From positions 593,073-657,072 of the forward strand of contig JBMNHC010000001.1 in the NCBI GenBank assembly GCA_050950165.1: a DNA stretch of 64,000 bases. Direction: 5' to 3'. The DNA comes from Candidatus Dojkabacteria bacterium (GTDB lineage Bacteria; Patescibacteriota; Dojkabacteria; SC72). Numbering within the stretch: the stretch's first letter is position 1; every line of letters starts with the position of its first letter. The position numbers and the translations under genes are program-made. Positions 9,315 through 62,220 of this stretch are shown one piece after another. The notes under the pieces are model-generated. The model saw only the letters and a list, made by a program, of their open reading frames with translations, had not been told where the DNA came from and searched no databases.

Positions 9315-11834
9315 CTAGAATATCTTTAATCCATCTAGTCCTACTCCATCCATCTGTGTAAAGTTAAGTAGATCTACAAATGAAGAGGTTGTAGACCAGC
9401 TACTAACAGTATCGTCTGTGTCCCAGAATCTAATTCTCCAGTAATATATGGCTCCTGTGTTAGCAAGTTGTGGTCCTGCATATGTAATATCTGGGGATCT
9501 AGTCCCACTTGCTGTTGATGTCATGGGTTGTTTACCTGAATCCCAGAGTGTTGAGCCAGTAAAATTGCTATTTGAATTTATCTCTATTTGATAATATGTT
9601 GCACTGTCTCCATTGGGGTCACTATGTATCGCAGAGAATTTTGGTCTTACTACTGTAAGCCAAGCTGGATTTGTTTTTCCATCTACTAGGGGTCCTGAGG
9701 GAGCTGTAGGTACACCAGCCATTCTAAATGAGGCAGTAGTAGACCATTCTCCTTCTACATTTAAATTATCCCAGAATTTAATTCTCCAGTAATATATATC
9801 TCCACTTTGTGTAAGGGTAGTACCAGCATATGATATGTCTGGAGACCTCGCTCCTATGGCTGTAGAGCTCATACTTGTTTTTCCACTATCCCACATACTA
9901 GTACCAGTAAATGAAGAGTTAGTATTTACATGTATTTGATAGTATATACCAGTATTCCCACTATCACTGTCTTGGAATATTGCACTAAACTCTGGTGTAG
10001 TGTCATACACCTTGTTAGGATTACTTTCTCCTTCTGTAAGTAGAGAGGTTGGTGCTGTAGGTGATTCATTTGCAGTAAATTGAGCAACAGAAGACCAGTT
10101 ACTTTCGGAATATATGACTCCGTTATCCCAGAATTTAATTCTCCAGTAATATGTAGTACCTGGAGTAAATGTAGATCCACCATATGAAATATTTGATGAT
10201 CTTGCTCCATTGTTGATAGGGGTAATTGCAGTTTTTCCACTGTCCCACATACTAGTACCTGTAAATGAGGAGTTAGTATTTACTTGTATTTGATAGTAGA
10301 TTCCTGTATCAGAGGTATCAGGATCACTAAATACAGCACTAAAATATGCAGAAGAAGAGATAACTCCTGATGGATTAGTAGCTCCGTTTGTTAGTAATGA
10401 AGAAGGTGGATTGGGTTGTCTGTTCAATATCTCTTCTCCCCCGACAGAAGTAGCTTGAGAAGTTTTTCTCTCTATATATATTACTGAGTAGTAAGAGGGA
10501 ATATTAGAGTTAGTTAAAGATACTGTTGTAGTATGTGTATGGTCAGCATTAGCATATACTATACTAGAAGGATTCCACTCTTGCCGAGAAGTGGTATCAG
10601 CAAGACTTATACTCACATTATGTGTATGAGTTGATGACCCTTGAGCAGTTAGATTAGCAGTAGCAGCACCCATTAAGAAATTGTTATTCATTGTAGTATA
10701 TTGGGTCCAACCTAGTGGTGGAACAGCACTAGCCATTGCAATTACATTTGTTCCTAAAGTTGTTGTTGCTGGACTTTTTACAAAAAGTAGACTTTTGTAT
10801 GGTGGATAGTTTGATGCAGCAGGATTAGATGTTAGAGAAACAGGATGTGTGTGACTAGTAATAGCTATACCTCTCTGATTTGGAGAAGGAACAGTTAGAC
10901 CGTAACATTGTGTATTTGTAGTTGCTGCCATAGACAAGTCTGTAATTGTATGTGAGTGTGTAGCTGCACCACCTGTACCACCATATGTAGCATTTCCAGC
11001 AGGAAGTCTTCCGTCAAATGCAGACATTCTTGTCCACCCAGATGGTGTTGTGGTAGAAAACATTATAATATTAGCTAAATTTGATAGATCACTTTTTTGA
11101 CATACGATTGAATAGATATATGGTGGAGTTGAACTAGCAGAGCCTACGGTTCCTGATACATTATGGGTATGTCCTTGGGTAGGTGCACAAACAACTTCGT
11201 CACTTCCACCAACTCCACTACCAGCAGATCCGCCAGATGAAGCTACAGTAAATGAGCCCCCATGGTTGTGATTACTTGCTACTCCTCCAGTAGATCCTGC
11301 AGTTGTAGAACCGTAGATAAATTTCCCATCAAAGGATGAACTTCTGGTCCAACCATTAGCACATGCTGTATCAGAGAGGGCATAGAAAACTCCTGACCAT
11401 CCACTCTGTCCACTCCCTGCAGATGTATTACCGTAGTATGCATATATTGTTTTTCCTCCTGATGGTAGTGATGGAATTCTTACCCATATTTTTGTACTAG
11501 TAGTATTACATCCTCCCTCTATCCAGTATGAAAGTAGTGTGGTATCGTTACTATCCACAAACCTTAAATCATTACAGTTAGATTGTAGTTTACCTGCTGT
11601 AATTAGAGATTGTGTATCTAATGTAATTAATACATCTTCATTAGTTAGTGTAGAACCAGAATTACTAACAGTAATCGCTCTTCTATACAACCAGTTATTA
11701 TCATACCAAGCAGAACTATCTTCTGTTTTCTCTCTATTAGAAAGATATACCAAAAGAGGTGTACCTAAGAGTATTACTAATGTTGATGCTATGAGAATTG
11801 TTCTTTTAGATATCTTTTTAAAAGGGTTTTCCAT
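9315..11834 (-). CDS. Large membrane-anchored surface protein. It combines a DUF2341-like N-domain, repeated HxH phage-tail-collar-like motifs, and three tandem ~110-aa FN3-like repeats.
   Basis: 839 aa with an N-terminal TM (ILIASTLVILLGTPLLVYL). W..NW.YRR.ITV resembles DUF2341. Six motifs (NHNHGG, GHTHNVSG, THSHTITD, SHTHPVS, THTHNVSI, DHTHTT) recur. Three repeats share ...YYQI.VNTNSSFTGTSMWDSGKT...YYWRIKFWD. Composition is Ser/Thr/Gly-rich. Confidence 0.7.
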   Translation of the reverse strand: MENPFKKISKRTILIASTLVILLGTPLLVYLSNREKTEDSSAWYDNNWLYRRAITVSNSGSTLTNEDVLITLDTQSLITAGKLQSNCNDLRFVDSNDTTLLSYWIEGGCNTTSTKIWVRIPSLPSGGKTIYAYYGNTSAGSGQSGWSGVFYALSDTACANGWTRSSSFDGKFIYGSTTAGSTGGVASNHNHGGSFTVASSGGSAGSGVGGSDEVVCAPTQGHTHNVSGTVGSASSTPPYIYSIVCQKSDLSNLANIIMFSTTTPSGWTRMSAFDGRLPAGNATYGGTGGAATHSHTITDLSMAATTNTQCYGLTVPSPNQRGIAITSHTHPVSLTSNPAASNYPPYKSLLFVKSPATTTLGTNVIAMASAVPPLGWTQYTTMNNNFLMGAATANLTAQGSSTHTHNVSISLADTTSRQEWNPSSIVYANADHTHTTTVSLTNSNIPSYYSVIYIERKTSQATSVGGEEILNRQPNPPSSLLTNGATNPSGVISSSAYFSAVFSDPDTSDTGIYYQIQVNTNSSFTGTSMWDSGKTAITPINNGARSSNISYGGSTFTPGTTYYWRIKFWDNGVIYSESNWSSVAQFTANESPTAPTSLLTEGESNPNKVYDTTPEFSAIFQDSDSGNTGIYYQIHVNTNSSFTGTSMWDSGKTSMSSTAIGARSPDISYAGTTLTQSGDIYYWRIKFWDNLNVEGEWSTTASFRMAGVPTAPSGPLVDGKTNPAWLTVVRPKFSAIHSDPNGDSATYYQIEINSNSNFTGSTLWDSGKQPMTSTASGTRSPDITYAGPQLANTGAIYYWRIRFWDTDDTVSSWSTTSSFVDLLNFTQMDGVGLDGLKIF

Positions 11835-47159: not shown

Positions 47160-48782
47160 ATGGAAAATGAGTTGAACTATTTTAAAAATGGCAAAGAACA
47201 TCTTCTCTCTAGAAGAGAGTTTTTAAGATGTAGCACAGTAGCAATGGGCGTTCTTTTTCTCTCCCCTGATATAGAGAAATCAGGTGTTGAAGATAATACT
47301 TTTGCAGAAGTTGCTCAATCATATATTGCAGATACACATAAGGATGCTACCCTCATATCTGAATACATTAGAATGGAGAAAGGATCCTCTCCTTCAAATA
47401 TATGTGGTCCTCTTGCTACCTCTATACTTCTTGGTTGGAAATTGAAAGGAGATGGTACAATTAGTAGTGCTTTGGGAGAGGAAAGCAGTAAAAGTAGAAT
47501 GGAAGGAGTAGTACCAAGAGAGATGTGGTTAGGTTCTCCTTCTAATGATTTAAATAGATTTAAACTAGCGTTTCCAGAGAGCGCATACGAAAGCTATCGT
47601 ATTAAAGAGAATATATATTTTGCTGATTTTAACAATATTCCTGGTGCTAATACACTTAAACCGGGAGATTTTCTTTACTTAGACGGAGGTTCTTTTACTC
47701 ACTACATTGCTATATCCAGACGAGATAGCAGTGGAAGGTTGTACTCTGTATCAAATGTACATGGAGAGAAGATTGATGAATTTAAAATTCAAGAGTTAAT
47801 GGTTTGGGATCCTAATATTAAAGATGGATTCTTGAGGGAATGGGCAAAAGGTGTAGGCCCACAGAGAGCAAGAACGGGACTGAAAGGTTTCTACCTATGG
47901 AGAAGAAAAGAAGATGCAGAACCTCTCGTTGAAGATAAAGCAGCAAAGGAGTTGCGAGATACTCTCATTAACAAAATGCGCAACCAGAAACAAGGAGATT
48001 GGAACATATATATCAATGAGATAGGAAAGGGAGAGATTTTTGAGTGGAGAGATGGAATACCTTATCATAGTGCTTCAACAATTAAGGTTCCACTAGCAGT
48101 GTTAGCTCTTAGGATAATAAATGTTGGGTATAAAGATGAGATTGCTAAAGATGGGTTAGAGGCTACACTTAAAAAGAGAGGTTTTGAAGGTAGAACTTTT
48201 AATCAACTCCTTTCTGCGATGTTAGTTAATTCAGAGGAGGTTGCTACTGATAATATTGTAAAATTCATAAGAAGATTTGTAGCCCTAGAAGATGGTATTA
48301 AAGGTTTAGGAATGGATAATACTTCATACAAGCCTAGAAGAACTACACAGAGAGATCTTTTTAGATGTTGGAAATCTCTCTTTACTGGTAAGTATTTGGA
48401 TAAAGAAAATACGTCTTACCTTCTTAAGAAGATGGCAGAGTATACAGAAAATGATGACATGATGATTGGTGAGCTTAAAAAGCAGTTTCCTAATGCTAAG
48501 CAGTGGAATAAGAGAGGAATAATTGCAGATGATATTCTCACAGTGCAGGATAGCGGTATTACTTTAATCCCTACAGCAGATGGTAATAGATATCTGTACA
48601 TAGGTATTGCAGGCTCAGGGAATAATAACAGACCTATTAAATATGAAGAGGTAAGAGAGTTTATCTCTTCAATAATGGATGATATATCTAAATATATTAA
48701 GGATAGTAAACAAAACAGGAGTAATCTAAAATGTATTAACTCATTCTCCCCATCTCCCTCCTGTTCCTTCTATATAAAGTAA
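47160..48782 (+). CDS. TAT-signal secreted two-domain protein: an N-terminal Cys/His domain and a C-terminal class-A-beta-lactamase-like serine hydrolase domain
   Basis: 540 aa with a twin-arginine motif SRREFLR plus an h-region. The C-terminal half has SxxK (ASTIKV), NSE (SDN-like) and KRG (KTG-like). The N-terminal half has conserved-looking Cys (NICGPLA) and His (FTHYIAIS). Confidence 0.65.
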   Translation: MENELNYFKNGKEHLLSRREFLRCSTVAMGVLFLSPDIEKSGVEDNTFAEVAQSYIADTHKDATLISEYIRMEKGSSPSNICGPLATSILLGWKLKGDGTISSALGEESSKSRMEGVVPREMWLGSPSNDLNRFKLAFPESAYESYRIKENIYFADFNNIPGANTLKPGDFLYLDGGSFTHYIAISRRDSSGRLYSVSNVHGEKIDEFKIQELMVWDPNIKDGFLREWAKGVGPQRARTGLKGFYLWRRKEDAEPLVEDKAAKELRDTLINKMRNQKQGDWNIYINEIGKGEIFEWRDGIPYHSASTIKVPLAVLALRIINVGYKDEIAKDGLEATLKKRGFEGRTFNQLLSAMLVNSEEVATDNIVKFIRRFVALEDGIKGLGMDNTSYKPRRTTQRDLFRCWKSLFTGKYLDKENTSYLLKKMAEYTENDDMMIGELKKQFPNAKQWNKRGIIADDILTVQDSGITLIPTADGNRYLYIGIAGSGNNNRPIKYEEVREFISSIMDDISKYIKDSKQNRSNLKCINSFSPSPSCSFYIK

Positions 48783-48907
48783 GAAAGTTGTCTAGTAGAA
48801 CAAACGGCTGGTATCCCTACTCAATCTTTTATATAAATACATAATAGACAGAAAGGAGTATGGTTATAGCTTTTATTTAGTTATCCGTATGTGATTTGTA
48901 CAGAGTA

Positions 48908-48936
48908 TTGAAATGTTATGGGATTAGTTGTATAAT
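48908..48936 (+). promoter_or_regulatory. Sigma70-like promoter (TTGAAA-N17-TATAAT) for the giant surface-protein gene
   Basis: TTGAAA at 48908-48913 and TATAAT at 48931-48936. It lies about 85 nt upstream of the ATG at 49021. Confidence 0.45.
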
Positions 48937-49020
48937 CCGACAGTTGTAGATAGAGTGCTATCAGAGTCTCTCTACATGTTTTGTAATTTATATTTTTATT
49001 AAAATTATTATTTACAAATA

Positions 49021-52000
49021 ATGAAGCTAAACAAAAAGCTCCTAAAGAAGTCTTTGTATAAGATTTCTACAGTCCTATTTTTAATAGGATATACTTTTAC
49101 CCCACCATTTTTGGCATTTGATCAATTAAGAGATATAGGAGGAGAGATTACTCCTGTAGCTGCTGCTGATGGGCCGTATACTATTTCTTCTACTAGTGGT
49201 ATTTGGACTAAGGTTGAAGGAACAACTAACTATTCTGGTGTGAATACCAGTGAGATAAGATGGGGAACTGGAAATCCAAGAAGTGGACTAAAATTCACTT
49301 CTGCTGGTGCTCAAACTTTTGATGCAAATCAGAAATTTCTCATAGGAGATTTAACACATATGAACTGGCCAGTTTCTGGTGGTACTGCAGATTCTGCAAC
49401 TCTAAAAGTTACTTTGAATTTTTCTCAACCTCCTCTTTCTCCAAATCCAACATTTTCATACAAGTTTAATATAAATGAAACGAGTAATGGATATTCTTGG
49501 TATAAAAATTGTCCAGGATATCCTGATGAACAGTTAAGCACAACCCCATGTGATGATGTGATTACGTTCCCAAGTGCATATGGACAGGAAGTTTTTACAA
49601 TTGGGGATATGAAATATACATTAAAGATTGATGGATTCCAAAGTCAATATCCAACAGGAGATCCTGTATCTAAATTCATAACAGAAGAAAAGAAAGATAA
49701 TGTAGCATATTTGGTTGGTCATCTAAGTTCTATTTTAGTTGAAAAACCAGCTATCTCCATTGTTAAGAAAGTAAATGGACAGGATGCTAATACTCCTGCA
49801 GAAGCAGTAGAGGTAACAGCAGGAGAAACTGTAAATTTTGAATATATTGTACAGAATACAGGTAATGTAAAGTTAACAAACATTGCAGTAACAGATGACA
49901 AAGGAGTACAAGTAACATGTCCAGGAACAGAATTAGAACCAGGTACAAATATGACTTGTACAGGAAGTGCTACAGCTATTGCAGGTGACTATACTAATAT
50001 TGGTACAGTTACATCATCTCATGATTTATCAGCAAGTGATCCTGCAAACTATAAAGGTATTATTCCTACAATTAGAATTTGTCATGCATCTGGTTCACAT
50101 ACAAACCCATATATTGTAAATAATCCAAGTGCATCTGGAGATTTGAATGGGCATGCAGGACATACTGGTCCTATTTGGTTCCCAGGTATAACAGTAGATT
50201 GGGGAGATATCATTCCTTCATTTACATCATATGATGGAGTTTACTTCCCTGGTCTTAACTGGAGTGAGTATGGACAAGCAGTGTATAACAATAACTGTGT
50301 AATTCCACAAGGTAAAATAATTGTAAAGAAAGTTTTAAGTCCAGCTTCTACTAGTAATCAAGCATTTGAAATAGTTGGTAGTGGTACTCCTGCAATAGAG
50401 GGTTCCCCTACTTTCTTGTATTACAGTAATAGCAATATTGGAAGTATTAGTAGGAATCAGTCTCATACATACAATGTAATGCCTGGTACATATAATATTG
50501 CAGAAACAGTACCAGCAGGTTGGAGTTTAGTAAGTAATACATGTTCAAATATTGAAATTACAAATAATGAGACTAAGGAGTGTACTATTACTAATACACA
50601 ACATGGTTCATTAACTATTGTTAAAAGAGCTCTACCATATGGTAATACTTCATTTGGATTTAAACTTTCAGGTAATGGAGTTAGTGAACAGTTTAATTTA
50701 GTAGATAACTCTGAAACAGAAGATGCAAGTAAAACATTTAGTTTAACAACAGGTACATATGCAGTTGCAGAAGATGACTATAGTGCAGATTGGAAAACAA
50801 CACACTCTTGTACAAAAGGTAGTATAGATAATATTGCATTGGGTGCAGGTGAATCAGTAACTTGTACATTTACAAATACAAAATATGGATCTATCTCAGG
50901 ATACAAATTACAAGATGCTGACAACGATGATTCTACTACTACAGATAGAACTCCAGTTTCTGGATGGACAATAATTCTAAAAGATAAGAATGGGACTGAA
51001 ATAGCTAGAACAACAACTAATGTAAATGGATATTATGAATTTACAGGATTACTTCCTGCAGATTACATAGTAACAGAAGGTCTTGAAGTTGGTTGGATAG
51101 TTTTAGTTGGTGATAGCAAGAATGTAACATTAGATGCAGGTGAGAATGAAGAGAATGTGAATTTTGTAAATGTTAAGTTAGGTAGTATTAAAGTTCTAAA
51201 GAATGTTGATACAGATGGAGATGGAGATGTAGATCAGGAGGGTTCAACAGAGTGGTCTTGGACACTTAACGGAGCAAATGCGGGTGCAACAGGTACAACT
51301 AAATCTGATTTGGAACCAGGTTCATATACAATTAAAGAGACAGGTGGCTTAGATAACTTCCACTTTGTTTCATTAAGTTGTACAGGTGCAGCAGATGAAA
51401 GAATCACTATCACAGATGATACTGCTACAATAGATTTAAGATCTGGTGAAGATGTAGTCTGTACATATACAAATGCAAGAAACTTAGGAAAGTTAATAAT
51501 TGAGAAGGAAGTTATTAATGATAATGGTGGTAGTAAGAAGGCTACAGATTTCTCATTCCAGATAGATAGTGAAGATGCAATTCAATTCACTAAGAATGGA
51601 GAGAATGAATTACTAGGAAGAAATGAGTATGTAAGATATGCAGGTCTCTCCTACACTATTACAGAACCTGAAGCAAATCAGGATGGATATACAACTACAT
51701 ACAGAAATTGTGAAGATATTGTAGTTCCTCATGATGGTGAAGTTGTATGTAAGATTACGAATAATGATAGTAAGCCTTCACTAACTCTTGTTAAGGAAGT
51801 TAAGAATGATAACGGTGGTACAGCAGTTAAAACCGATTGGAACTTGAAAGCAGATGGACCTACTCCAATCAGTGGAGATGGTGGTGCAACAAGTGGTGAT
51901 GATTTCCAAGCAGGTACATATATATTAAGTGAGAGTGGAGATGTAGCTGGGTATAATGCAAGTGATTGGAGTTGTACAAATGGTGTTGTAGTTGATGATA

Positions 52001-55000
52001 ACAATGGAATAACCATTGGAATAGGTCAATCTACTGTATGTACAATAGTAAATGATGATATTGCACCTTCATTACAATTAGTTAAAGTTGTTAATAATAA
52101 CTTTGGTGGTAATGCAAAAATTACTGATTGGGCACTAACAGCAACTGGTCCTACAACAATCACAGGAAATGGTGGTGTTACAAGTGGAGATACCTTTAAG
52201 GCAGGTACATATACATTAAGTGAGAGTGGAGATGTAACAGGATATGATGCAAGTAGTTGGAGTTGTACCAATGGTATTACAGTTGATGCAAACAATGGAA
52301 TTACTTTAGGAGTTGGTGAGTCTACAGTATGTACCATTACTAATAGTGATATTCAGCCAACATTGACTTTAGTTAAGACTGTTGTAAATAAGTATGGTGG
52401 TAATAAAGAAGTATCAGACTTTAATCTCTACATAGGAGATACCAAAGTAACAAGTGGTGTTGCTACAGGTGTAAATGCAAATACACAATATACAGTAAGA
52501 GAAGATCAATTAGATGGATATACAGCATCTGATTGGAGTGGAGATTGTAGTGCAGATGGAAAGATTACATTACTTCCAGGTGAGAACAAGACCTGTACTA
52601 TTACAAATAGTGATTCTCAGTCTAAGATTACCGTTATTAAGAAAGTAGTTAATGATAATGGTGGTACAGCAACAGCTAATGATTTTAATATTACCTTAAC
52701 AGACTCCACATTAACGTTTGATGCAGGTGTAAAAGATGGTGATACAACAACTTACACAGCTTCAGTATTTGGAGATGTAAATAAGGAATACACACTATCT
52801 GAAACAGTTGCAAATACAGGATATACAATGGATAGTTTAGAATGTTCTCTCGGTTCTGATGGAGTCTTTACTCTTCCAGAAGGACAAGATGTAACTTGTA
52901 CAATTGTTAACAATGATATCCAACCAAAGCTTACTGTAGTTAAAGTTGTTGATAATGAAACATATGGTAACAAGGAGGTTTCTGATTTCACACTCTATGT
53001 ATCAGGAAATAAGGTAACCAGTGGAGATGTTAATAACTTAGATGCAGGAGAGTATACAGTAAGTGAAGATAACATTGATGGATATGAGGCTACAATAACT
53101 GGTGATTGTGATGTTCAAGGTAAAGTTACATTAAATCCTGGTGATGATAAGACCTGTACTATTACAAATAGAAGTACACACGGTAAGATAGTTATTAAGA
53201 AACTAGTTGAACCTGATACAGATTCTACAGAATTTACATTTACAGGTGATGTAGCTGGAACAATTGGTCATAATGGAACTATTGAAAAGATAGTAGTTCC
53301 AGGAGAGTACTCTGTAGCAGAAACATCTTTAACAGGATGGAATCTGAAATCTCTAGTATGTGATGATACAGATAGTAGTGCAAGTGGATATACAGCAAGA
53401 ATTAAGGTTGGAGATAATGAAACAGTAACATGTACATTTACTAATGAGAAATTAGGAAAGATCTCAGGTTACAAGTACGAGGATAAGAATGGAAATGGTA
53501 TATGGGATGCAGAAGAGCCTGCATTAGATGGTTGGACTATCAACAATGGACTTGGTGATAGTACAACAACAAATGCTAGTGGATACTACGAGTTTACTAG
53601 CTTACCAGTAGGTAATACATATACAATTACTGAAACTCAAAAAGATGGTTGGACTCAAACATCCACTAACCCATCAGCAATTACAATTGTTGCAGGAGAT
53701 GATGTTAAGGATATAAACTTTGGTAACTTCAAACATGTAACAATCAATGTAACTAAAGATGTTGTTGGTATAGATGGAGTAACTGATGTTGAAGACGACA
53801 GAACATTTACTGCACAACTTAATGGTGGAAATGAAAAATTAATATCTGAGACAACAACAGCTACATATACAATTGAACAGCCTGGTACATATACAGTATC
53901 AGAGTTTGATGTGGTGGACTACACATATCTAGGATGCTTCTTAGGAGATGTTGCATTTACTGACTATGCAGTAGAGAGTGGTAAAATATACAATGTAGTA
54001 TGTAAGAATGCACAACTACCAGCAACAGTAATAGTTACAAAGAATGTAGTAAATAGTGATGGGGTTGATGAGGATGTATTCTCAGATGATCAGTTTGATG
54101 TTGTACTTGGTGAAGAAACTAAACAGATTGCAGACACAGCAAATGGTAAGGTACTTGCTACATTTGAAGGATTACAACCAGGAGAGTACACATTAACAGA
54201 AACTGAAAAGGATGGATATATCTTTGAAGGATGTACAAACTCTGAGGGTACTCTTGGAAGTAATGAGACTGTAGAAGTTGTATGTACAAACAGAGTAATT
54301 GATCCTCTTCTTGAGATTGAAAAGAGTAATGATAAAGAAGGTATAGATCAATATGCAGGAGATGAAGTTACATACACAATTAAAGTAACAGCACCTAGCG
54401 ATGAACTAGATGGAACATATGTTCTAAATAATGTAGTTATTTCTGACATTGCTCCAGCAGGATTTGAATATATCTCTGATACATGGACAGCACAGAAGAA
54501 TGGTGTTGATATCATAGTTCCTGAACCTACATATGATGGAGAAAATGCAGCACAGTGGATAATTGGAGATATGAAAGAAGGAGATGAAGTAGTATTAACA
54601 TACAAAACTAAGATCTCTCTTCTTACAGATCCAGGAGTATATCCAGATATCGCATGGGTAAAAGGTGCCTCTATAAGTAATCTTCCTGTTTTGGGTAATG
54701 TATCTACAGATGCTTCTACTCCATTTGTAGGAACAGAAGTTAAAGTAATAGAGCCAATTGAAACAGAAGATGGAGAGGTATTAGGAGCTATATCATATCT
54801 ACCAAAAACAGGTGCAGATACATATCTAACATTAGGAGCATTAGCTATGGTGTTACTAGGCTTGTTTGCCCTACTCTCTAGACCATTTAAGAAATTAAAG
54901 TATGCTTTACTTACAACAGTAATGGCTTTTTCAATACTCTCAGTTGCTTTAGCAACAGAGGTGTTAGCTGAGCCTTACTTAGATGTTAAAATCGAAAAAC

Positions 55001-55812
55001 CAGTAACTCCTACTGCTAAAAAGTCATTTAATATTGATTTCACAGCACAGAGTACATCTGGAGAGACACCAGAAGTGGATTGTTACAAAGATGCAGTTAA
55101 ATTTGCATCCTTTACTGCTAACTCTGGAGCATGTCCAGTAACAGTAACAGAGTCAGGTACATACTCATTCTATGTAGTTGCAACTGCAGGAGGTCAAACA
55201 GAACAATCTGAAACAGTAACAGTCGTAGTAGATTTAACTTCACCATCTCCTGTTACGGGATACAGCAAGAGTGGTAATGTATTAACATTTACAACTGCAA
55301 ATGATGGTAGAACATCTAAGGTTGAGATATTTAGATCAGACAAGTCATCATTTACAGCAAATGCATCAACCCGTCTTGATACAATGAATGTATCACCTAA
55401 TACAACATATACATATACAGATGGAACAGCAGTAGCAGGAAACACATATTACTATGCATTAAGAGCTGTAGATGCATATGGTAATGTCTCAACACTTGTT
55501 TCAGACAATGTAGTGATTGTTGTAAAAGAACCAGCTACTACTACAACTACTAATGTAGCTAAAACAGAAACAAGTGAAGTAGAAGGAGCAACAGATGAAG
55601 ATAAAGATAGTGCATCTAAGGAAGTAAAGGGAGAAACAGATGATAGTACAACTCAAAAAGCAGACGAGGGTAAAGAGAGTAATGAAACTAATGATTCTGA
55701 TTCAGATGAAAAGAAATCATTCCTTAGTTATTGGTATATCTGGGTTCCAGTATTAATTGTATCTGTAGGATTAGTCTATCTTTATGTCAGAAGAGAGAAA
55801 AAGAGTTACTAA
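49021..55812 (+). CDS. Giant LPxTG-motif cell-surface protein (2263 aa). It carries DUF11/'CTITN' Ig-like tandem repeats and CnaB/SdrD-B-like domains. A complete sorting signal sits at about residue 1930. An in-frame signal-peptide-like segment, an FN3-like domain, an acidic linker and a terminal TM follow it.
   Basis: The N-terminus has signal/TM character. About eight ~100-aa repeats end in ...C(T)ITN. GYKYEDKNGNGIWD is a CnaB-type motif. LPKTG + LTLGALAMVLLGLFALL + SRPFKK is a textbook sortase signal. The ORF then continues as KKLKYALLTTVMAFSILSVALATEVLA..., ending in ...YIWVPVLIVSVGLVYLYVRREKK. Confidence 0.85.
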   Translation: MKLNKKLLKKSLYKISTVLFLIGYTFTPPFLAFDQLRDIGGEITPVAAADGPYTISSTSGIWTKVEGTTNYSGVNTSEIRWGTGNPRSGLKFTSAGAQTFDANQKFLIGDLTHMNWPVSGGTADSATLKVTLNFSQPPLSPNPTFSYKFNINETSNGYSWYKNCPGYPDEQLSTTPCDDVITFPSAYGQEVFTIGDMKYTLKIDGFQSQYPTGDPVSKFITEEKKDNVAYLVGHLSSILVEKPAISIVKKVNGQDANTPAEAVEVTAGETVNFEYIVQNTGNVKLTNIAVTDDKGVQVTCPGTELEPGTNMTCTGSATAIAGDYTNIGTVTSSHDLSASDPANYKGIIPTIRICHASGSHTNPYIVNNPSASGDLNGHAGHTGPIWFPGITVDWGDIIPSFTSYDGVYFPGLNWSEYGQAVYNNNCVIPQGKIIVKKVLSPASTSNQAFEIVGSGTPAIEGSPTFLYYSNSNIGSISRNQSHTYNVMPGTYNIAETVPAGWSLVSNTCSNIEITNNETKECTITNTQHGSLTIVKRALPYGNTSFGFKLSGNGVSEQFNLVDNSETEDASKTFSLTTGTYAVAEDDYSADWKTTHSCTKGSIDNIALGAGESVTCTFTNTKYGSISGYKLQDADNDDSTTTDRTPVSGWTIILKDKNGTEIARTTTNVNGYYEFTGLLPADYIVTEGLEVGWIVLVGDSKNVTLDAGENEENVNFVNVKLGSIKVLKNVDTDGDGDVDQEGSTEWSWTLNGANAGATGTTKSDLEPGSYTIKETGGLDNFHFVSLSCTGAADERITITDDTATIDLRSGEDVVCTYTNARNLGKLIIEKEVINDNGGSKKATDFSFQIDSEDAIQFTKNGENELLGRNEYVRYAGLSYTITEPEANQDGYTTTYRNCEDIVVPHDGEVVCKITNNDSKPSLTLVKEVKNDNGGTAVKTDWNLKADGPTPISGDGGATSGDDFQAGTYILSESGDVAGYNASDWSCTNGVVVDDNNGITIGIGQSTVCTIVNDDIAPSLQLVKVVNNNFGGNAKITDWALTATGPTTITGNGGVTSGDTFKAGTYTLSESGDVTGYDASSWSCTNGITVDANNGITLGVGESTVCTITNSDIQPTLTLVKTVVNKYGGNKEVSDFNLYIGDTKVTSGVATGVNANTQYTVREDQLDGYTASDWSGDCSADGKITLLPGENKTCTITNSDSQSKITVIKKVVNDNGGTATANDFNITLTDSTLTFDAGVKDGDTTTYTASVFGDVNKEYTLSETVANTGYTMDSLECSLGSDGVFTLPEGQDVTCTIVNNDIQPKLTVVKVVDNETYGNKEVSDFTLYVSGNKVTSGDVNNLDAGEYTVSEDNIDGYEATITGDCDVQGKVTLNPGDDKTCTITNRSTHGKIVIKKLVEPDTDSTEFTFTGDVAGTIGHNGTIEKIVVPGEYSVAETSLTGWNLKSLVCDDTDSSASGYTARIKVGDNETVTCTFTNEKLGKISGYKYEDKNGNGIWDAEEPALDGWTINNGLGDSTTTNASGYYEFTSLPVGNTYTITETQKDGWTQTSTNPSAITIVAGDDVKDINFGNFKHVTINVTKDVVGIDGVTDVEDDRTFTAQLNGGNEKLISETTTATYTIEQPGTYTVSEFDVVDYTYLGCFLGDVAFTDYAVESGKIYNVVCKNAQLPATVIVTKNVVNSDGVDEDVFSDDQFDVVLGEETKQIADTANGKVLATFEGLQPGEYTLTETEKDGYIFEGCTNSEGTLGSNETVEVVCTNRVIDPLLEIEKSNDKEGIDQYAGDEVTYTIKVTAPSDELDGTYVLNNVVISDIAPAGFEYISDTWTAQKNGVDIIVPEPTYDGENAAQWIIGDMKEGDEVVLTYKTKISLLTDPGVYPDIAWVKGASISNLPVLGNVSTDASTPFVGTEVKVIEPIETEDGEVLGAISYLPKTGADTYLTLGALAMVLLGLFALLSRPFKKLKYALLTTVMAFSILSVALATEVLAEPYLDVKIEKPVTPTAKKSFNIDFTAQSTSGETPEVDCYKDAVKFASFTANSGACPVTVTESGTYSFYVVATAGGQTEQSETVTVVVDLTSPSPVTGYSKSGNVLTFTTANDGRTSKVEIFRSDKSSFTANASTRLDTMNVSPNTTYTYTDGTAVAGNTYYYALRAVDAYGNVSTLVSDNVVIVVKEPATTTTTNVAKTETSEVEGATDEDKDSASKEVKGETDDSTTQKADEGKESNETNDSDSDEKKSFLSYWYIWVPVLIVSVGLVYLYVRREKKSY

Positions 55813-56461
55813 TTGGAAGATCATTGCAGGAGTAGTCTTACTCCTGCTAGGTCTAACTGCCCTCCTTTTGACCTTCTGGTCTGTAATCTCTGTATATATT
55901 TCTCACGTGCTCTCTCCTACTCCATCAACAAGTGTAGTTGAAATTGCAAAAAACAGTTCGGAGATTACTAAAGAGGTAGATAGTCAAACAGAGAAGGTAT
56001 TCGTAGATCCTGAATTTGGATTGTATATTCCTAAACTTAAAACAAATTGCTCCATTGCAGAAAATGTAGACCCCTTTGATAAAGATAGGTATACATCAGC
56101 ATTAAGAAGTAAGATAGCTCATGCTAAAGGAACATCTGTTCCTAACAAAAGTGGTAATGTATTTCTCTTTGGTCACTCTGCAGCAAATTTTTATGAAAGA
56201 CATGATCGTCTAGTCTATTTCTATCTTCTAAGAGAGCTATCTAAAGGTGATGAGATATTTCTAAGTTACAAAGGTGTAATCTACAAGTATGTTGTAGATG
56301 AACTTAAAACAGTATCTCCTGAAGATACAAAATATCTTAAAAATTACTCTGAGAAAGATACTCTTACACTTATGACATGTTATCCACCAGGTGCAGATTG
56401 GAAGAGAACAGTAGTTATCGCTTACAGAGATGAAGTAGAACCAATTGTAAAGGGTCTTTAA
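55784..56461 (+). CDS. Sortase (class A/E-like transpeptidase)
   Basis: 225 aa with an N-terminal TM. The catalytic His is in LFGHS and the active-site Cys in the TLxTC motif (TLTLMTCYP). A conserved Arg lies near the C-terminus. Its start overlaps the LPKTG protein's end by 29 nt. Confidence 0.85.
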   Translation: MSEERKRVTNWKIIAGVVLLLLGLTALLLTFWSVISVYISHVLSPTPSTSVVEIAKNSSEITKEVDSQTEKVFVDPEFGLYIPKLKTNCSIAENVDPFDKDRYTSALRSKIAHAKGTSVPNKSGNVFLFGHSAANFYERHDRLVYFYLLRELSKGDEIFLSYKGVIYKYVVDELKTVSPEDTKYLKNYSEKDTLTLMTCYPPGADWKRTVVIAYRDEVEPIVKGL

Positions 56462-57591
56462 CCTACCTCTTTATCTATCCACTTACTTACTGCTTTTCTT
56501 AAGTCTTCTTTACAGGTTTTTTGTATCTCATCAAATGTATGTGTAGGAGAAGCTATCTCATATATGCTCTCTATTAAATACTTCCTTTTTAGATTTACAT
56601 CATTGATTTCGTTTCTTCCTGTAAAGATAACGAGAGGGATTTCTCTTTTGGTAGTAAACTTAGCAATACCACTTATTGTTTTACCTTCTAAGGATTGACT
56701 ATCAAACTTTCCTTCTCCTGTGATAACGAGGTTTGTGTTATGTAAGATTTTATCAAAATTACACATCTCTAGTATTAAATCTATTCCATTAACAATATCT
56801 GCATTAAGAAAGAATGAGCATGATGCAGCTATTCCTCCAGCTGCACCACCCCCTACTATACTTGAGATATCTACCTTAAATTGTTTTTTAAGAATATTTG
56901 AGTAATGTCTTAAACCGTTGTCTAATAAAATGATTTCTTCTTTACTTGCTCCTTTCTGCTTAGCATATATATACGCTGCTCCATTTTTACCGTAGAGAGG
57001 ATTAGAAATATCTACCATGAGTGTAAATTTAAGATCTTTAATGTTATTTTTTAAACCTGAGTCATCGATACTAATGATTTTGTTTAGGGTAGAGCCTACT
57101 GGTACAAAAGAGTTTCCATCTTTATCTAAGAATTTAACTCCTAATGCAGAGAGTAGACCTGTACCTGCATCGTTTGTAGCACTACCACCTAGAGCAAGAA
57201 TAATGTTTTTTGTACCTTTAGATATGGCGTGCAGGATCTGTTCTCCCATTCCTAAACTAGTTGTAAACATGGGGTTTTTAGGGTTAGCAAATGTAAGTCC
57301 TGCACATTGTCCTGCCTCTATTACTACACTCTTGTCATATTTAACATACTTAAAATTTCTTTTAGTAAAGTTGGGGGAGGTAAAAAGATCTGTTACATAC
57401 TCACCTGAGAAATTTTCAAAGAAGACATCTATGGTATTCTCTCCTCCATCTGCTACTGAGAGTCTAATGACTTCTGCATTTGGTATTTTCCTTAAGATTT
57501 CTTCTTGGATAATGGTGCCTGCTGTAAGGGAGGACATTGTTCCTTTGAAGGAGTCTGGTGCTACCACTATTTTCGTTTTATCCTTCTGCAT
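56458..57591 (-). CDS. Glycerate kinase
   Basis: 377 aa. KIVVAPDSFKGTMSS is the N-terminal motif of the GlxK/GarK family. Confidence 0.85.
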   Translation of the reverse strand: MQKDKTKIVVAPDSFKGTMSSLTAGTIIQEEILRKIPNAEVIRLSVADGGENTIDVFFENFSGEYVTDLFTSPNFTKRNFKYVKYDKSVVIEAGQCAGLTFANPKNPMFTTSLGMGEQILHAISKGTKNIILALGGSATNDAGTGLLSALGVKFLDKDGNSFVPVGSTLNKIISIDDSGLKNNIKDLKFTLMVDISNPLYGKNGAAYIYAKQKGASKEEIILLDNGLRHYSNILKKQFKVDISSIVGGGAAGGIAASCSFFLNADIVNGIDLILEMCNFDKILHNTNLVITGEGKFDSQSLEGKTISGIAKFTTKREIPLVIFTGRNEINDVNLKRKYLIESIYEIASPTHTFDEIQKTCKEDLRKAVSKWIDKEVG

Positions 57592-58805
57592 AGTTGTCTT
57601 TCAAATACATTTTTACCTAACTGTTTAGATTTTTTAGACCAGTATCTAGTAAGTTTACTACTCTCAAAGGTATCAATTAACTCTTTATATTGGTTTACAA
57701 GCTCTTCTTCTTTTTTACTACACTCTAAAGAGAATTGTACTAATTTAGAGTGAGTAGCGTTTTCTTCTTTTAATTGATTGTCTTTCTCTATGAATTCTTT
57801 CTCTAATTTTCTTGCTTTCTCTTTCCATTCGTTTAGGTTAATGATGTTGGAATATATTAGTCTATTTAGTTTTTCTCTTTTTAGCCAGTATTGAAGACTA
57901 TCTTTTTCATTTTTGAAACATGGTGGTACTACAAACTCTTTAGACGGATGGAAGTAGAGAGGTTTAAAGATGGATATACAGGGTGTAGAGGATCCTGTTA
58001 TCCATATCGTTATATCATCATCAACAACAGTTATCATACTGCCAGTTGTATGTTCTCCTAGTATTCCTGCGTGCATACATACGCTTCTTGCAGATCCTTT
58101 TTTAATTATTTTTTCTTGGGTTGTTGTGTGTAGTCTTAGGGTATTGAAATATTGTTCTAGGTCGTACTGTTTAATATTTTTGAGGTGTTGGCTACCTAGT
58201 TCCATTCTACTTTTTGATCCAGAAAAGTATGTGAATATTGGTTCTGTATGCTTTTTAGCAAAGTTTTTATCAGAGAGTCTGTTAGATATGTTAGCACAGT
58301 CTTTTACTTGGTTTAGGGAATATTCTTTTCCTGCTGTTTCTAGTATGTATGCTTCATTTCTGTCTGTGATTAGGTATGAATTATCATAGTAGATTGTATT
58401 GTCAAAGCCACAGTTTCCTCCTTGTCCATATTGTTGTAGTAGCCCTATTATTTCCTCTGTTGCTTGTTTAGCTGTTTTACTTCTTTCAAGTGCAAGTCTT
58501 AAGAAGTCCATCCCTATTAGGGTTGGTGTTTTTTTAGTTTTAGATTTTGTAAATACTGCTTCATTCCCTATACTTACTCCATATTCATTTATTCCCATTT
58601 CTGCTCCCCATATCCATGATGGTTTTACTAGGAGTACAGCATAGTGTTCTTTAGGGTCTGGTATGGATATGTATGTACATTCTACTTGGTTTCTTGAGGG
58701 TCCTGCAGGGTAGAAGATAGTTAGGTTGGGTTCGTTAACGGCTCTGTCACTGTTTTTAAGGAATATGGAGTATTGGTTTTGTTTTTTCCATAGTGTATCA
58801 CACAT
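57567..58805 (-). CDS. C69-family (Ntn-hydrolase) dipeptidase
   Basis: 412 aa. It begins MCDT, with the Cys nucleophile directly after the initiator Met, followed by KNSDR..NEP. Confidence 0.75.
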   Translation of the reverse strand: MCDTLWKKQNQYSIFLKNSDRAVNEPNLTIFYPAGPSRNQVECTYISIPDPKEHYAVLLVKPSWIWGAEMGINEYGVSIGNEAVFTKSKTKKTPTLIGMDFLRLALERSKTAKQATEEIIGLLQQYGQGGNCGFDNTIYYDNSYLITDRNEAYILETAGKEYSLNQVKDCANISNRLSDKNFAKKHTEPIFTYFSGSKSRMELGSQHLKNIKQYDLEQYFNTLRLHTTTQEKIIKKGSARSVCMHAGILGEHTTGSMITVVDDDITIWITGSSTPCISIFKPLYFHPSKEFVVPPCFKNEKDSLQYWLKREKLNRLIYSNIINLNEWKEKARKLEKEFIEKDNQLKEENATHSKLVQFSLECSKKEEELVNQYKELIDTFESSKLTRYWSKKSKQLGKNVFERQLCRRIKRK

Positions 58806-58929: not shown

Positions 58930-60501
58930 ATGTTAAATAGCAATAATACTAAGGAACATGAGAGAGCAGAATTACATAAAACAATATGGCGAATAGCAAA
59001 TGATTTAAGAGGTAGTGTAGATGGTTGGGATTTTAAACAGTATGTACTTGGTATGTTGTTTTATCGTTTCATTAGTGAAAATCTCACTAGTTATCTTAAT
59101 GCAGGAGAGAGAAGAGCAGGAGACAAGGACTTTAACTATGCAGATATTTCAGATAAAAAAGCTGAGAATGGTAGAAAGGATACTGTTGAAGAAAAAGGTT
59201 TCTACATTCTTCCTAGTGAACTTTTTGAGAATGTAAGAAAGAATGCAAAGAATGACCCGAATCTTAATGAAACTTTAGCTAAGGTGTTTGATAATATTGA
59301 GAACTCTGCAAGAGGGTTTGAAAGTGAAGATGATCTAAAAGGTCTGTTTGATGACTTAGATGTGAACTCTAAGAAATTAGGAAATACTGTAGAACAAAGG
59401 AATGAAAAGCTTGTTAAGTTGTTAAATGCAATTGGAGATTTAAATCTAGGAGAGTATTCAGATAATACAATTGATGCTTTTGGAGATGCCTATGAATTCC
59501 TTATGACCATGTATGCTTCTAATGCAGGTAAGTCAGGAGGTGAATTCTATACTCCTCAAGAGGTTAGTGAATTACTTGCAGAGATAACTACGGTAGGCAA
59601 AACAGAAGTAAACAAGGTGTATGATCCAGCTTGTGGTTCAGGTTCATTACTTTTGAAGTTTTCAAAGGTTTTAGGAAAGGAGAATGTAAGACAGGGTTTC
59701 TTTGGACAGGAGATTAATCTTACAACATACAACCTTTGTCGTATAAATATGTTTCTTCATGATATTAACTACAATAATTTTGATATAGCTTTAGGTGATA
59801 CATTAACAGACCCTAAGCATTGGGATGATGAGCCTTTTGATGCAATAGTATCTAATCCTCCATACTCAATTAAGTGGGAGGGAGATAGTAATCCTCTCCT
59901 TATAAATGATCCTCGTTTCTCACCTGCTGGTGTTCTAGCACCTAAGAGTAAAGCAGACTTAGCTTTTACAATGCACATACTTTCTTGGCTTTCTACTAGT
60001 GGTACTGCTGGTATTGTTGAATTCCCTGGTGTGCTTTACAGAGGTGGTGCAGAGCAGAAGATTAGGAAGTATTTGGTAGATAATAACTATATTGATACTG
60101 TAATACAGCTTCCTCCTGATTTGTTCTTTGGTACAAGTATTGCAACTTGTATTATTGTTCTAAAGAAGAGTAAGAAAGAAAATAGTATTCTTTTCATAGA
60201 TGCATCAGAGGAGTTTGTAAGAGAGGGTAACAAGAACAAACTTAGTGAGGAGAACAGGAAGAAGATATTAGATACATTTAAGCAAAGGAAAGATATACAA
60301 CATTTTGCTAAGGTAGTAGATAACCAAGATATTGGAGAGAATGATTACAATATATCTGTATCTTCTTATGTAGAACAGAAGGATACTAGAGAGGTTATAG
60401 ATATTAAAGAACTTAATAAAGAGATAGAGGAGATAGTAAAGAGACAGAATGTATTAAGAGATAGTATAGATAATATTGTTAGGGAGATAGAAGGGGAATG
60501 A
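58930..60501 (+). CDS. hsdM: Type I restriction-modification DNA methyltransferase subunit
   Basis: 523 aa with an HsdM N-domain, EFYTP, a SAM motif (DPACGSGS) and NPPY (SNPPYSIKW). Confidence 0.9.
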   Translation: MLNSNNTKEHERAELHKTIWRIANDLRGSVDGWDFKQYVLGMLFYRFISENLTSYLNAGERRAGDKDFNYADISDKKAENGRKDTVEEKGFYILPSELFENVRKNAKNDPNLNETLAKVFDNIENSARGFESEDDLKGLFDDLDVNSKKLGNTVEQRNEKLVKLLNAIGDLNLGEYSDNTIDAFGDAYEFLMTMYASNAGKSGGEFYTPQEVSELLAEITTVGKTEVNKVYDPACGSGSLLLKFSKVLGKENVRQGFFGQEINLTTYNLCRINMFLHDINYNNFDIALGDTLTDPKHWDDEPFDAIVSNPPYSIKWEGDSNPLLINDPRFSPAGVLAPKSKADLAFTMHILSWLSTSGTAGIVEFPGVLYRGGAEQKIRKYLVDNNYIDTVIQLPPDLFFGTSIATCIIVLKKSKKENSILFIDASEEFVREGNKNKLSEENRKKILDTFKQRKDIQHFAKVVDNQDIGENDYNISVSSYVEQKDTREVIDIKELNKEIEEIVKRQNVLRDSIDNIVREIEGE

Positions 60502-60998
60502 GTCAAACAACAGATCTAGATGAAATTAGAAAACAAACTAGAGTAGCTTTGCCATCAGATAATGCCTATTTATTTAGGTTAGGAGTTGCTTTGTATGCTT
60601 TTAATTCAGTGAATAGTTCCTTGGTGGAAACAATTTGTTGTATAGATAGTAATCAAAAACAAACAGAGTTACTTGATTTAGAATCAGGTAAAATCTTACA
60701 GAGATTTTTTGAAATAATAAGGAATGTTAAAAAGAAAAGTCTTTTTTCTTCTGCTCATGGATTGATGGATGAAGTAGCTGAATTATTTGAGAAAGCAAAT
60801 GCAAATCGTTCAGATTTTGTACATTCATATCCAATTACAAATCAAGAAGAGAAGCAAATTCTGCATCGTAGGAGAGATTCACAAGGTAAATATTTTGAGG
60901 TAGATAATTGTTTCTTAGATGCATTTATTGAAAGTCTAAATCATATAGAAGATTTTTTATATAAAATACGAGAGGAGGTAAAAAGTAAAAATGAATAA
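60498..60998 (+). CDS. Small hypothetical protein embedded between hsdM and hsdS, putatively HEPN-like (R-x4-H motif)
   Basis: 166 aa. It overlaps hsdM by 4 nt (ATGA) and hsdS by 8 nt. It is predicted all-alpha, and NRSDFVH fits the HEPN Rx4-6H signature. Confidence 0.5.
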   Translation: MSQTTDLDEIRKQTRVALPSDNAYLFRLGVALYAFNSVNSSLVETICCIDSNQKQTELLDLESGKILQRFFEIIRNVKKKSLFSSAHGLMDEVAELFEKANANRSDFVHSYPITNQEEKQILHRRRDSQGKYFEVDNCFLDAFIESLNHIEDFLYKIREEVKSKNE

Positions 60999-62220
60999 GA
61001 ATCTAAGTGTTTTACCAAATAAATTAGAGAAACTGGTACGAAATCTATGTCCAGATGGGGTCGAATATGTAAAGTTAGGAGAGGTTGCTCAATATTGTAG
61101 AGGAGTAACTTATAACAAGAGTGATGAAACTGATTCTGAAGAAGGGTTGAAGATTTTAAGGGCAAATAATATTGACTTATCAACAAATAGGTTAAATTTA
61201 GAAGATGTGAAAAAAATATCTTCGTCAGTTAAAGTGCGTGGTAATCAGAAGATAAAAGCTAATGATATTCTAATTAGTACTGCAAGTGGTAGTAAAGAAC
61301 ATGTAGGAAAAGTAGCATATGTCTTTAATGATATGGATTATTATTATGGTGGATTTATGGCAGTATTGAGATCTAATGAAAGATTGGATAGCAGATTTCT
61401 TTTTCATTTACTAGTTGGTAAGACTTTTAATGATTATCTGCGAAGAACATTGTCAAGTACAACAATAAACAATCTAAGTTCAAGGATTATAAACGAATTT
61501 AAAATCCCCCTGCCTCCTCTTGACATACAAAAGGAGATAACTAAAATTCTTAACGAGTTTACAGAGTTGGAGGCAGAGTTGGAGGCAGAGTTGGAGTGTA
61601 GAAAGAAACAGTATGAGTATTATAGTAATGAGCTGTTATCATTTAATGAAGATGGAGAATATAAAGAACTAGGAAAATTGTTAGAAAGAACGAAAGGAAC
61701 AGCTATTACAGCGAAGAGAATGAGTGAGCTTAATAAGGATGGTGCTCCTATTAAAATTTTTGCAGGAGGTAAAACTGTGGCTTATGTAGACTATGGAGAT
61801 ATCCCTAATAAAGATGTTCTTACGGAAGAATCAATTGTTGTGAAGTCTCGCGGTATTATTGGCTTTGAATATATTGATAAGCCTTTTAGTCATAAGAATG
61901 AGTTTTGGTCATATCATAGTAATAATCCTAATGTCTCTGTTAAATATGTATATTATTATTTAAGGAGTAAAGAACCATACTTTCAAAGGATTGGTCAGAG
62001 AATGTCAAAAATGCCACAACTTTCAATTCCAGATACTGATAAATACAAAATCCCCATCCCCCCTCTCTCCGAACAAAAAAGAATTGTATCCATACTAGAC
62101 AAATTCGACTCCTTAGTAAATGATATGTCCATAGGATTACCAGCAGAACTAAATGCAAGAAGAAAACAATACGAATACTATCGTAATAAACTATTAACAT
62201 TCAAAGAATATGGAAAGTAA
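60991..62220 (+). CDS. hsdS: Type I restriction-modification specificity subunit
   Basis: 409 aa. Two target-recognition domains are separated by conserved helical regions (LPPLDIQKEITKILNEF / IPPLSEQKRIVSILDKF; central ELEAELEAELECRKKQYEYY and C-terminal LNARRKQYEYYRNKLL). Confidence 0.9.
   Translation: MNKNLSVLPNKLEKLVRNLCPDGVEYVKLGEVAQYCRGVTYNKSDETDSEEGLKILRANNIDLSTNRLNLEDVKKISSSVKVRGNQKIKANDILISTASGSKEHVGKVAYVFNDMDYYYGGFMAVLRSNERLDSRFLFHLLVGKTFNDYLRRTLSSTTINNLSSRIINEFKIPLPPLDIQKEITKILNEFTELEAELEAELECRKKQYEYYSNELLSFNEDGEYKELGKLLERTKGTAITAKRMSELNKDGAPIKIFAGGKTVAYVDYGDIPNKDVLTEESIVVKSRGIIGFEYIDKPFSHKNEFWSYHSNNPNVSVKYVYYYLRSKEPYFQRIGQRMSKMPQLSIPDTDKYKIPIPPLSEQKRIVSILDKFDSLVNDMSIGLPAELNARRKQYEYYRNKLLTFKEYGK
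61564..61596 (+). repeat. About 2.75 copies of a 12-bp tandem repeat (gagttggaggca) encoding (ELEA)n in the HsdS central conserved spacer
   Basis: The direct sequence read is gagttggaggca gagttggaggca gagttggag. Confidence 0.6.

Follow-up and report, generated by a model that had tools for sequence, protein, structure and literature searches.

A mid-polypeptide LPXTG sorting signal in a Candidatus Dojkabacteria adhesin fused to an Ig+FN3 membrane module and followed by a sortase gene

What does a complete cell wall sorting signal do when it lies in the middle of a protein? This question is raised by an open reading frame (ORF) of Candidatus Dojkabacteria bacterium, found in a stretch of 64,000 nucleotides (nt) from contig JBMNHC010000001.1 (assembly GCA_050950165.1, positions 593,073 to 657,072), hereafter called the window. 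The ORF (49021-55812) joins a large surface adhesin, including its LPKTG sorting signal, to a small membrane protein with an immunoglobulin (Ig)-like and a fibronectin type III (FN3)-like domain, hereafter the module, and a sortase gene follows directly. Most Patescibacteria are episymbionts, and little is understood of how they attach to their hosts. We consider it fairly likely that the locus represents a cassette of three genes (adhesin, Ig+FN3 membrane protein, and sortase) conserved across the candidate phyla radiation (CPR), here with the first two fused, and that the fused ORF encodes a polyprotein resolved by the sortase together with signal peptidase.

The fused ORF is a single uninterrupted frame of 2263 amino acids (aa) on the plus strand, which also holds the sortase gene and the promoter-like site described below. 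No stop separates its two parts: over nt 54760-55020, frame 0 is open and both other frames are full of stops. The LPKTG motif occupies aa 1927-1931 (nt 54799-54813), that is, 337 aa from the C-terminus (about 330 by the initial annotation) and at 85% of the protein length, and this region scores 17.7 bits with the NCBIfam model LPXTG_anchor (cut-off 15.9). Directly 5' of it lies the pre-motif GEVLGAISY (54772-54798), conserved in homologs, and the peptide GEVLGAISYLPKTGADT is the candidate stretch for recognition by the sortase. The motif is followed by ADTYLTLGALAMVLLGLFALLS (the first transmembrane segment, TM1; 22 aa, aa 1932-1953, nt 54814-54879), the basic loop RPFKKLK (54880-54900, net charge +4), YALLTTVMAFSILSVALATEVLA (TM2; aa 1961-1983, nt 54901-54969), and then EPYLDVKIEKP and the remainder up to the protein end. 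The sorting signal thus has its hydrophobic segment of about 20 aa and its positive cluster (described at first as SRPFKK), but not a C-terminal position: 303 residues come after the basic cluster, and the signal is likewise internal in 56 loci described below. The loop is predicted to be cytoplasmic and would double as sorting-signal tail and n-region of a second signal peptide. In line with this double role, already proposed in the initial annotation, TM2 is a signal-peptide-like segment ending in VLA|EP, and the standalone homologs P0005, P0007, and P0008 align with it through their N-terminal signal peptides.

What lies behind TM2 was modelled with AlphaFold2 (AF2) for aa 1916-2263, using an alignment of nine sequences. 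The model places helices over TM1 (aa 1933-1952) and TM2 (aa 1959-1980), followed by two beta-sandwich domains with a predicted local distance difference test (pLDDT) score above 90 (aa ~1985-2165), a disordered acidic stretch with pLDDT below 50 (aa ~2172-2236), and a terminal helix (aa ~2238-2261). The FN3-like domain, acidic linker, and terminal transmembrane segment expected from the sequence are therefore all present, with a second, Ig-like domain besides. In coordinates, the predicted extracytoplasmic part, an Ig-like domain with two conserved Cys (aa 2021 and 2038) plus the FN3-like domain, covers 54970-55515 (from AF2, Foldseek, and conserved columns); the acidic stalk covers 55516-55728 and holds an EVKG copy (aa 2201-2204, nt 55621-55632) of a G-x-V-x-G motif; and TM3 with its RREKKSY tail and the stop, aligned in all homologs, covers 55729-55812. 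A Foldseek search against the PDB returns tandem FN3/Ig folds, the best being 3pdd (the FN3-like modules of CbhA, E 3e-7). All of these PDB matches are generic (cytokine and Fc receptors, phage tail proteins) and none is informative on function. Neither Pfam nor NCBIfam holds a family matching the module, and Pfam fn3 gives no hit at E<=0.01; on the basis of the model, its FN3 membership is one of fold only.

The part before the sorting signal has the looks of a surface adhesin. Its N-terminus MKLNKKLLKKSLYKISTVLFL agrees with that of the ortholog in the fused Dojkabacteria relative L002; inspection of the translation reveals MKLNKKLLKK and a hydrophobic core, kept in L002, and marks 49021-49167 as a candidate Sec signal peptide region (cleavage after LAF or AAA). 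The adhesin body (49189-54666) comprises a choice-of-anchor K domain (aa 57-231; NCBIfam choice_anch_K, 5e-30), DUF7507, prealbumin-like repeats of the SpaA, SpaA_2, SpaA_4, and SdrD_B types, and DUF11 (aa 1764-1882). Among the Pfam matches, SpaA_2 is the strongest (2e-94, 310.8 bits, seven stretches), followed by SpaA (2e-20, 73.2 bits), SpaA_4 (71.1 bits), SdrD_B (54.1 bits), and DUF11 (3e-9).

The sortase gene (55784-56461) overlaps the 3' end of the fused ORF by 29 nt, exactly as first described. Its product has an N-terminal transmembrane segment, the catalytic His in FGHS, Cys in TLMTC, and Arg in WKR, and matches Pfam Sortase (PF04203) with 78.5 bits (cut-off 26.6, 4.7e-22). No terminator-like site was found between adhesin and sortase, and a loose scan of all window ORFs of at least 80 aa detected neither a second canonical LPxTG signal nor a second sortase in the 64 kb.

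Is the joined frame real, and where does it come from? More distant homologs hold the key to the second question, as they carry the two parts as separate genes. P0007 and P0008 are true standalone modules with N-terminal signal peptides of their own, and the gene order on their contigs is SpaA-type adhesin, module, sortase. The adhesin of such split loci ends in a canonical C-terminal sorting signal, e.g., LPATGESTVWVIIATIIGLLGVGSLITGFKLRKRYA followed by the stop codon. Adhesin stop and module start overlap by 4, 8, 11, or 14 nt, and the commonest overlap (8 nt) reads CGG AGG AAA TAT GCT TAA (RRKYA and stop), which holds the module's Shine-Dalgarno (SD) sequence GGAGG and its ATG. In the split operons L036, L039, L062, L056, L031, and L072 (compare L003, 8290-8310), the same DNA is at once sorting-signal tail, ribosome-binding site, start, and stop.

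Fused junctions carry the remains of this arrangement. In Dojkabacteria, the TAT GCT (KYA) scar is kept and the SD sequence is gone; TAT GC[TC] is present in all six fused Dojkabacteria junctions examined. The clade of the window shows the scar as K-(K/S/N)-Y-A-L-L, in which TAT GCT contains the old ATG out of frame; at 54902-54922 of the window, this former module start opens an ORF of six codons (ATG CTT TAC TTA CAA CAG TAA). Deleting four bases in an L003-like junction, TATGC[ATAA]ATTATTAACC, yields the YALLT of the window, and a loss of this kind may have been the path to its present junction, to judge from the sequence. Fusions of the Shapirobacteria type retain an in-frame Met, and 17 of the 53 distinct fused junctions have such a Met at the old start. 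No SD sequence precedes the in-frame loop Met in the fused forms. Because fused genes have lost the SD sequence that split genes carry, the fused form would be translated as one chain.

The first question, whether a missed stop or an indel of one nt around 54880-54910 has merely merged two adjacent genes in the assembly, deserves to be asked: split relatives with overlapping stop and start exist, so that a single indel would fuse them, and scaffold gaps in other metagenome-assembled genomes (MAGs) mislead gene calls at this very spot. We nevertheless regard such an artefact as extremely improbable. The Logan contig SRR31061296_64325, assembled independently, matches window positions 54784-57461 with 100% identity, a stretch of 2678 nt that includes the junction, LPKTG, both hydrophobic segments, and the module, without a stop or indel, and it encodes an identical sortase protein. 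A homolog search with aa ~1911-2263 as query finds relatives in Candidatus Dojkabacteria, of which P0001 and P0006 cross the junction in frame; taken more widely, the in-frame fusion recurs in 56 loci and 78 protein representatives with 27-53% identity. The junction of the window also lacks the SD sequence and the in-frame start that are seen in split forms. With an identical independent contig and dozens of in-frame orthologs, an assembly error is effectively refuted, and the fusion is evolutionary and fixed. The first explanation put forward in the initial annotation, in which an adhesin gene and the gene of a downstream membrane protein were joined by fusion or by loss of a stop, is thus supported as an evolutionary event, with split relatives carrying separate genes.

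Some homologs at first sight suggest split genes within Dojkabacteria as well. P0002-P0004 seem to be standalone proteins of 318-324 aa starting with MMILG, which lies inside TM1. For P0002 and P0004, we rejected this as proof of split genes: their starts are caused by runs of N just upstream, and in the DNA the frame continues upstream through LPNTG or LPDTG (...GEVLGASITLPNTG/LPDTG...) into an adhesin of about 2200 aa. P0003, on a contig of 2.3 kb and with the same MMILG start, is probably the same false call. The runs of N behind these false standalone module calls lie just upstream of the junction at L001 (~9880-10000) and L002 (~9792-9801). Since such scaffold N-runs create false standalone genes, databases under-count the fused form.

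How common, then, is the fused form? A locus scan with one genome per GTDB species returned 80 loci; 87 were classified (86 fetched plus the window) by anchoring on the FN3 motif and reading stop-to-stop ORFs. Fused forms, in which an in-frame [LM]Px[TA]G precedes a hydrophobic segment, a basic loop, and a second hydrophobic segment, make up 56 of the 87, next to 20 clearly split and 4 probably split loci, 6 cut by contig ends or gaps, and 1 that is long but devoid of the LPx residues. The motif in the 56 is LPxTG in 49 cases, MPxTG in 5, and LPxAG in 2. A profile search of 1.84 billion cluster representatives yielded 546 proteins at E<=1e-30, and in the best 150 of these, the module is mostly found at the extreme C-terminus of a protein of 460-2830 aa. 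Among 156 protein representatives, 78 are fused, 46 short standalone, 6 long without LPx, and 26 not anchorable. Far from being restricted to the window, the fused arrangement is thus the one most often met in a large family. According to tblastn, the module is immediately followed by a sortase homolog in 74 of the 83 informative loci, and 5 more have one at another place in the locus.

By record title, the cassette occurs in Dojkabacteria, in Shapiro-, Roizman-, Collier-, Gottesman-, Levy-, and Woesebacteria, in Moraniibacteriota, and in the 'Patescibacteria group'. Other MAGs are titled 'uncultured Gammaproteobacteria', 'Pseudomonadales', or 'Bdellovibrionales' (L025, L035, L038, L042, L046, L050, L052, L053, and others), and their modules nest among those of Shapiro-, Roizman-, and Collierbacteria; the deposited taxonomy of these MAGs is probably a placeholder or wrong. 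Single MAGs may also hold two or three cassette copies on different contigs (L020, L022, and L027 in Dojkabacteria UBA5232; L021 and L023 in UBA9296), and the cassette is thus paralogously expanded in some genomes. A quick neighbor-joining tree of the Ig+FN3 region calls for at least six changes between fused and split; in the Dojkabacteria clade, to which the window belongs, all members are fused. Because different fused clades carry different junction scars, the sequences argue for several independent fusions of tightly overlapping genes.

Conservation along the fused region was compared pairwise for 17 sequences in the Dojkabacteria-like clade. Identity amounts to 82% in LPxTG, 68% in TM1, and 67% in the pre-motif, versus 55% in the FN3 domain, 45% in the Ig domain, and 32% in both TM2 and the stalk. 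Such a pattern is expected if the sorting signal is specifically recognised while TM2 need only be a signal peptide. The sequence G-x-VLGA-[ST]-x-x is found 5' of the motif in almost all adhesins, fused and split. Each of the 53 distinct fused junctions has a positively charged loop between TM1 and TM2 (net +1 to +7). A small-x-Ala site shortly before the first beta-strand occurs in most fused junctions and in 14 of 15 split ones, according to inspection and a partly successful script, the anchor of which fell inside TM2 in about 12 fused loci (that of the window included) and which failed outright in 16 loci overall. Because the sorting signal is the best-conserved part of the fused protein and a sortase so regularly follows, cleavage at LPKT|G would be its likeliest fate. 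The second explanation of the initial annotation, a polyprotein that sortase cleaves, finds its support in these same sequence features, and both of its explanations then become parts of one account.

The following course of events can thus be proposed. A small indel in the overlapping stop/start junction would have joined the adhesin and module genes in the Dojkabacteria-like clade and in many other lineages. One polypeptide would be made, of which the N-terminal signal peptide carries the adhesin across the membrane until TM1 halts the transfer, leaving the basic loop in the cytoplasm. TM2, formerly the signal peptide of the module, would then restart translocation and form a TM1-loop-TM2 hairpin, after which the Ig+FN3 module is exported and anchored by TM3, giving the predicted topology out-TM1-in-TM2-out-TM3-in. 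The sortase encoded directly downstream would cut LPKT|G and transfer the 1930-aa adhesin to the cell wall, whereas signal peptidase I would cut after VLA (A1983|E1984). The expected products are a wall-linked adhesin, a hairpin remnant of 53 aa, and a type I membrane protein of 280 aa. They would equal the mature proteins of the split operons, now at a fixed 1:1 stoichiometry, and with identical products from both forms, repeated fusion and fission at no apparent cost would be understandable.

Several points weigh against this proposal. We infer both cleavages, the topology, and the wall linkage from sequence, with hydrophobicity, charge, AF2 helices, and homology to signal peptides as the basis of the topology. 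The sortase falls below every NCBIfam class cut-off (class C 63.8 versus 160 bits, class D 49.9 versus 165, class E 43.2 versus 160), and its nucleophile may be either lipid II or a protein amine. The loci were retrieved via one FN3 peptide pattern, which biases the sampling, and the tree behind the count of transitions has a midpoint root. Finally, the long members without LPx (VLGAATGT...; P0081, P0112, P0151, P0133, and L085), e.g., QVLGAATGTETSW..., keep VLGA and the transmembrane hairpin, so that cleavage by sortase may not be universal in the family. In such members (L085, ~2400-2700), the protein is maybe no longer a sortase substrate, or the enzyme recognises something other than LPxTG.

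The latter proteins lead to a different view of the window protein, namely that it is never cut by sortase: LPKTG would be a relic, and the adhesin would be tethered as part of a polytopic protein by the TM1-TM2 hairpin, with or without signal peptidase cleavage after TM2. The hairpin by itself would indeed keep the adhesin at the surface, and some long members have lost LPx and yet keep VLGA..TG and the hairpin. We think this unlikely for the window, as a relic is at odds with a pre-motif, LPxTG, and TM1 that exceed the folded domains in identity within its clade, with a sortase gene that lies directly 3' of the module in most informative loci and even overlaps it here, and with the presence of just one cell wall sorting signal and one sortase in the 64-kb window. 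Slightly less credible still is that translation is also initiated within the fused ORF (at M1968 or, in other lineages, at a loop Met), so that the module is made separately. The in-frame Met at the old start in roughly a third of the distinct fused junctions (the 17 of 53 mentioned above) speaks for it, but none of these codons has an SD sequence comparable with the GGAGG of the split forms, and the only Met available in the window (aa 1968) is buried in the hydrophobic core, the old ATG being out of frame (TAT GCT).

The sortase may also act in another way than on the cell wall, by ligating proteins: Thr1930 of the adhesin would be joined to an amine of the module (a Lys of the stalk or domains, or the new N-terminus), and TM3 would anchor the complex. 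The nearest solved sortases in the PDB are of the pilus-polymerising class C, although the match is weak (4e-11); the adhesin has no wall-spanning spacer before LPKTG, and about 70 aa of the module form a stalk; the stalk repeats the G-x-VLG motif; and the boundary between the Ig and FN3 domains has a Y-x-K with 95% conservation. On the other hand, a conserved Lys after the stalk motif, tried as the nucleophile, is not supported by the homolog comparison, nor is there conservation of the residue predicted to begin the mature module. The 2263-aa protein contains no YPK and hence no YPKN-type pilin motif, and the sortase stays well under the class C cut-off. The relative L002, in addition, encodes MurB and alanine racemase beside its cassette, which makes wall anchoring feasible. 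All in all, ligation has a small chance of being right, and release of the adhesin to the wall by sortase, with signal peptidase freeing the module, is the reading that we prefer.

The stalk motif merits a closer look. The adhesin motif G-x-VLGA-[ST] recurs in the stalk of 65 of the 71 distinct modules, versus about 3 expected from composition-preserving shuffles. Its stalk form is G-x-[VI]LG-[TAS]-[EQ]-T (GEV[AK]G in Dojkabacteria), and it is located 8-44 aa, typically ~12 aa, before the terminal transmembrane segment, so the C-terminus of the module looks, at sequence level, like a sorting signal without LPxTG. A second stalk motif, GAIPV, was seen in 34 of 71 stalks (L003-L086 modules). One speculative idea, to which we give little credence, is that G-x-VLG in stalk and adhesin is a docking site bringing both to one sortase, which would ligate the adhesin onto the module or the adjacent wall, with the module as membrane 'pedestal' or pseudo-substrate. 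Should it hold true, the module would be an undescribed, Patescibacteria-specific third component of sortase systems, and fusion would bring donor and acceptor together.

The surroundings of the cassette can be described briefly. A promoter-like site, TTGAAA-17-TATAAT (48908-48936, 11 of 12 consensus matches), lies ~85 nt 5' of the adhesin start and is the best in 48500-57800; it is a consensus match only, and it carries little weight because shuffles give more such matches than the region itself (mean 41.8 versus 15). Directly 5' of the adhesin, 47160-48782 encodes a protein of 540 aa, the C-terminal half of which holds a class A beta-lactamase-like domain (Beta-lactamase2, 4e-13); it is possibly a cell wall enzyme. 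The next gene 3' of the sortase is a glycerate kinase, convergent on the other strand, and further downstream, 58930-62220 holds the methylase gene of a type I restriction-modification system (HsdM: N6_Mtase 1.6e-119, HsdM_N) with two more ORFs behind it. In the split-form genome of L003, a second, different sortase gene with a LITCD-type active site (230-862) is located a few kb upstream of the cassette.

What makes this cassette of wider interest is that its commonest form puts a complete sorting signal in mid-polypeptide. LPXTG predictors that require a C-terminal position will miss such fused adhesins. The natural pairs of fused and split loci form an evolutionary experiment, arguing that sortase and signal peptidase can resolve a polyprotein. 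In addition, the Ig+FN3 membrane protein, assumed here to be a membrane accessory of the sortase system of the window, is a candidate third component of sortase machinery, and G-x-VLGA-ST-x-LPxTG is a candidate for an extended recognition motif.

How does all this compare with systems that are already known? Full-text literature searches returned no description of a cassette of this type or of sortase substrates in Patescibacteria, and sortase was mentioned only in passing. In the cytochrome b-c1 precursor FbcH of Bradyrhizobium, one ORF gives two products after signal peptidase cuts an internal signal-peptide-like segment. The proteins are unrelated to those discussed here and no sortase is involved there, whereas in the window protein LPXTG would be a further processing site, independent of the first. 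A sortase genomically coupled to one substrate gene is also known from class GN, the 'marine' sortase with its single target (NCBIfam TIGR03784); the window sortase, however, scores 26 bits with that model (cut-off 158), and a third conserved component, the Ig+FN3 module, is absent from the description of that system.

The canonical LPXTG adhesin of Gram-positive bacteria, with SpaA/Cna-B-type prealbumin-fold repeats, has an N-terminal signal peptide, for which the window protein has a candidate region, and shares with it the SpaA-like and SdrD_B repeats, DUF11, the succession of LPXTG, hydrophobic segment, and basic cluster, and a sortase with His, Cys, and Arg from the same operon. It differs in the position of the signal (337 aa from the C-terminus in the window), in the low-complexity wall-spanning spacer before LPXTG, which is missing here, in the extended conserved pre-motif G-x-VLGA-[ST], and in the sortase, that of the window being below the NCBIfam cut-offs for classes A-F.

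The topological logic, finally, is that proposed for the streptococcal IgA1/Zmp proteases, which combine a signal peptide with an LPXTG away from the C-terminus, two segments that span the membrane, and a second signal peptidase site (PMC3518915). The window protein has the same set of LPXTG, two hydrophobic segments (TM1 and TM2), and a putative second site (VLA|EP). There is no sequence relationship between the two, and Pfam finds no metalloprotease domain (Peptidase_M26) in the fused protein. The Zmp proteases have a short piece before LPXTG, near the N-terminus, and a large passenger after it without a terminal transmembrane segment; here, a 1930-aa adhesin comes before and a small, membrane-anchored Ig+FN3 module after. 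Moreover, each half has a gene of its own in some relatives, and the neighboring gene specifies a dedicated sortase. In short, the adhesin-module-sortase cassette and the module family are undescribed, and the combination of an internal LPXTG, a hairpin, and a second signal peptide has its precedent in the Zmp/IgA1 proteases.

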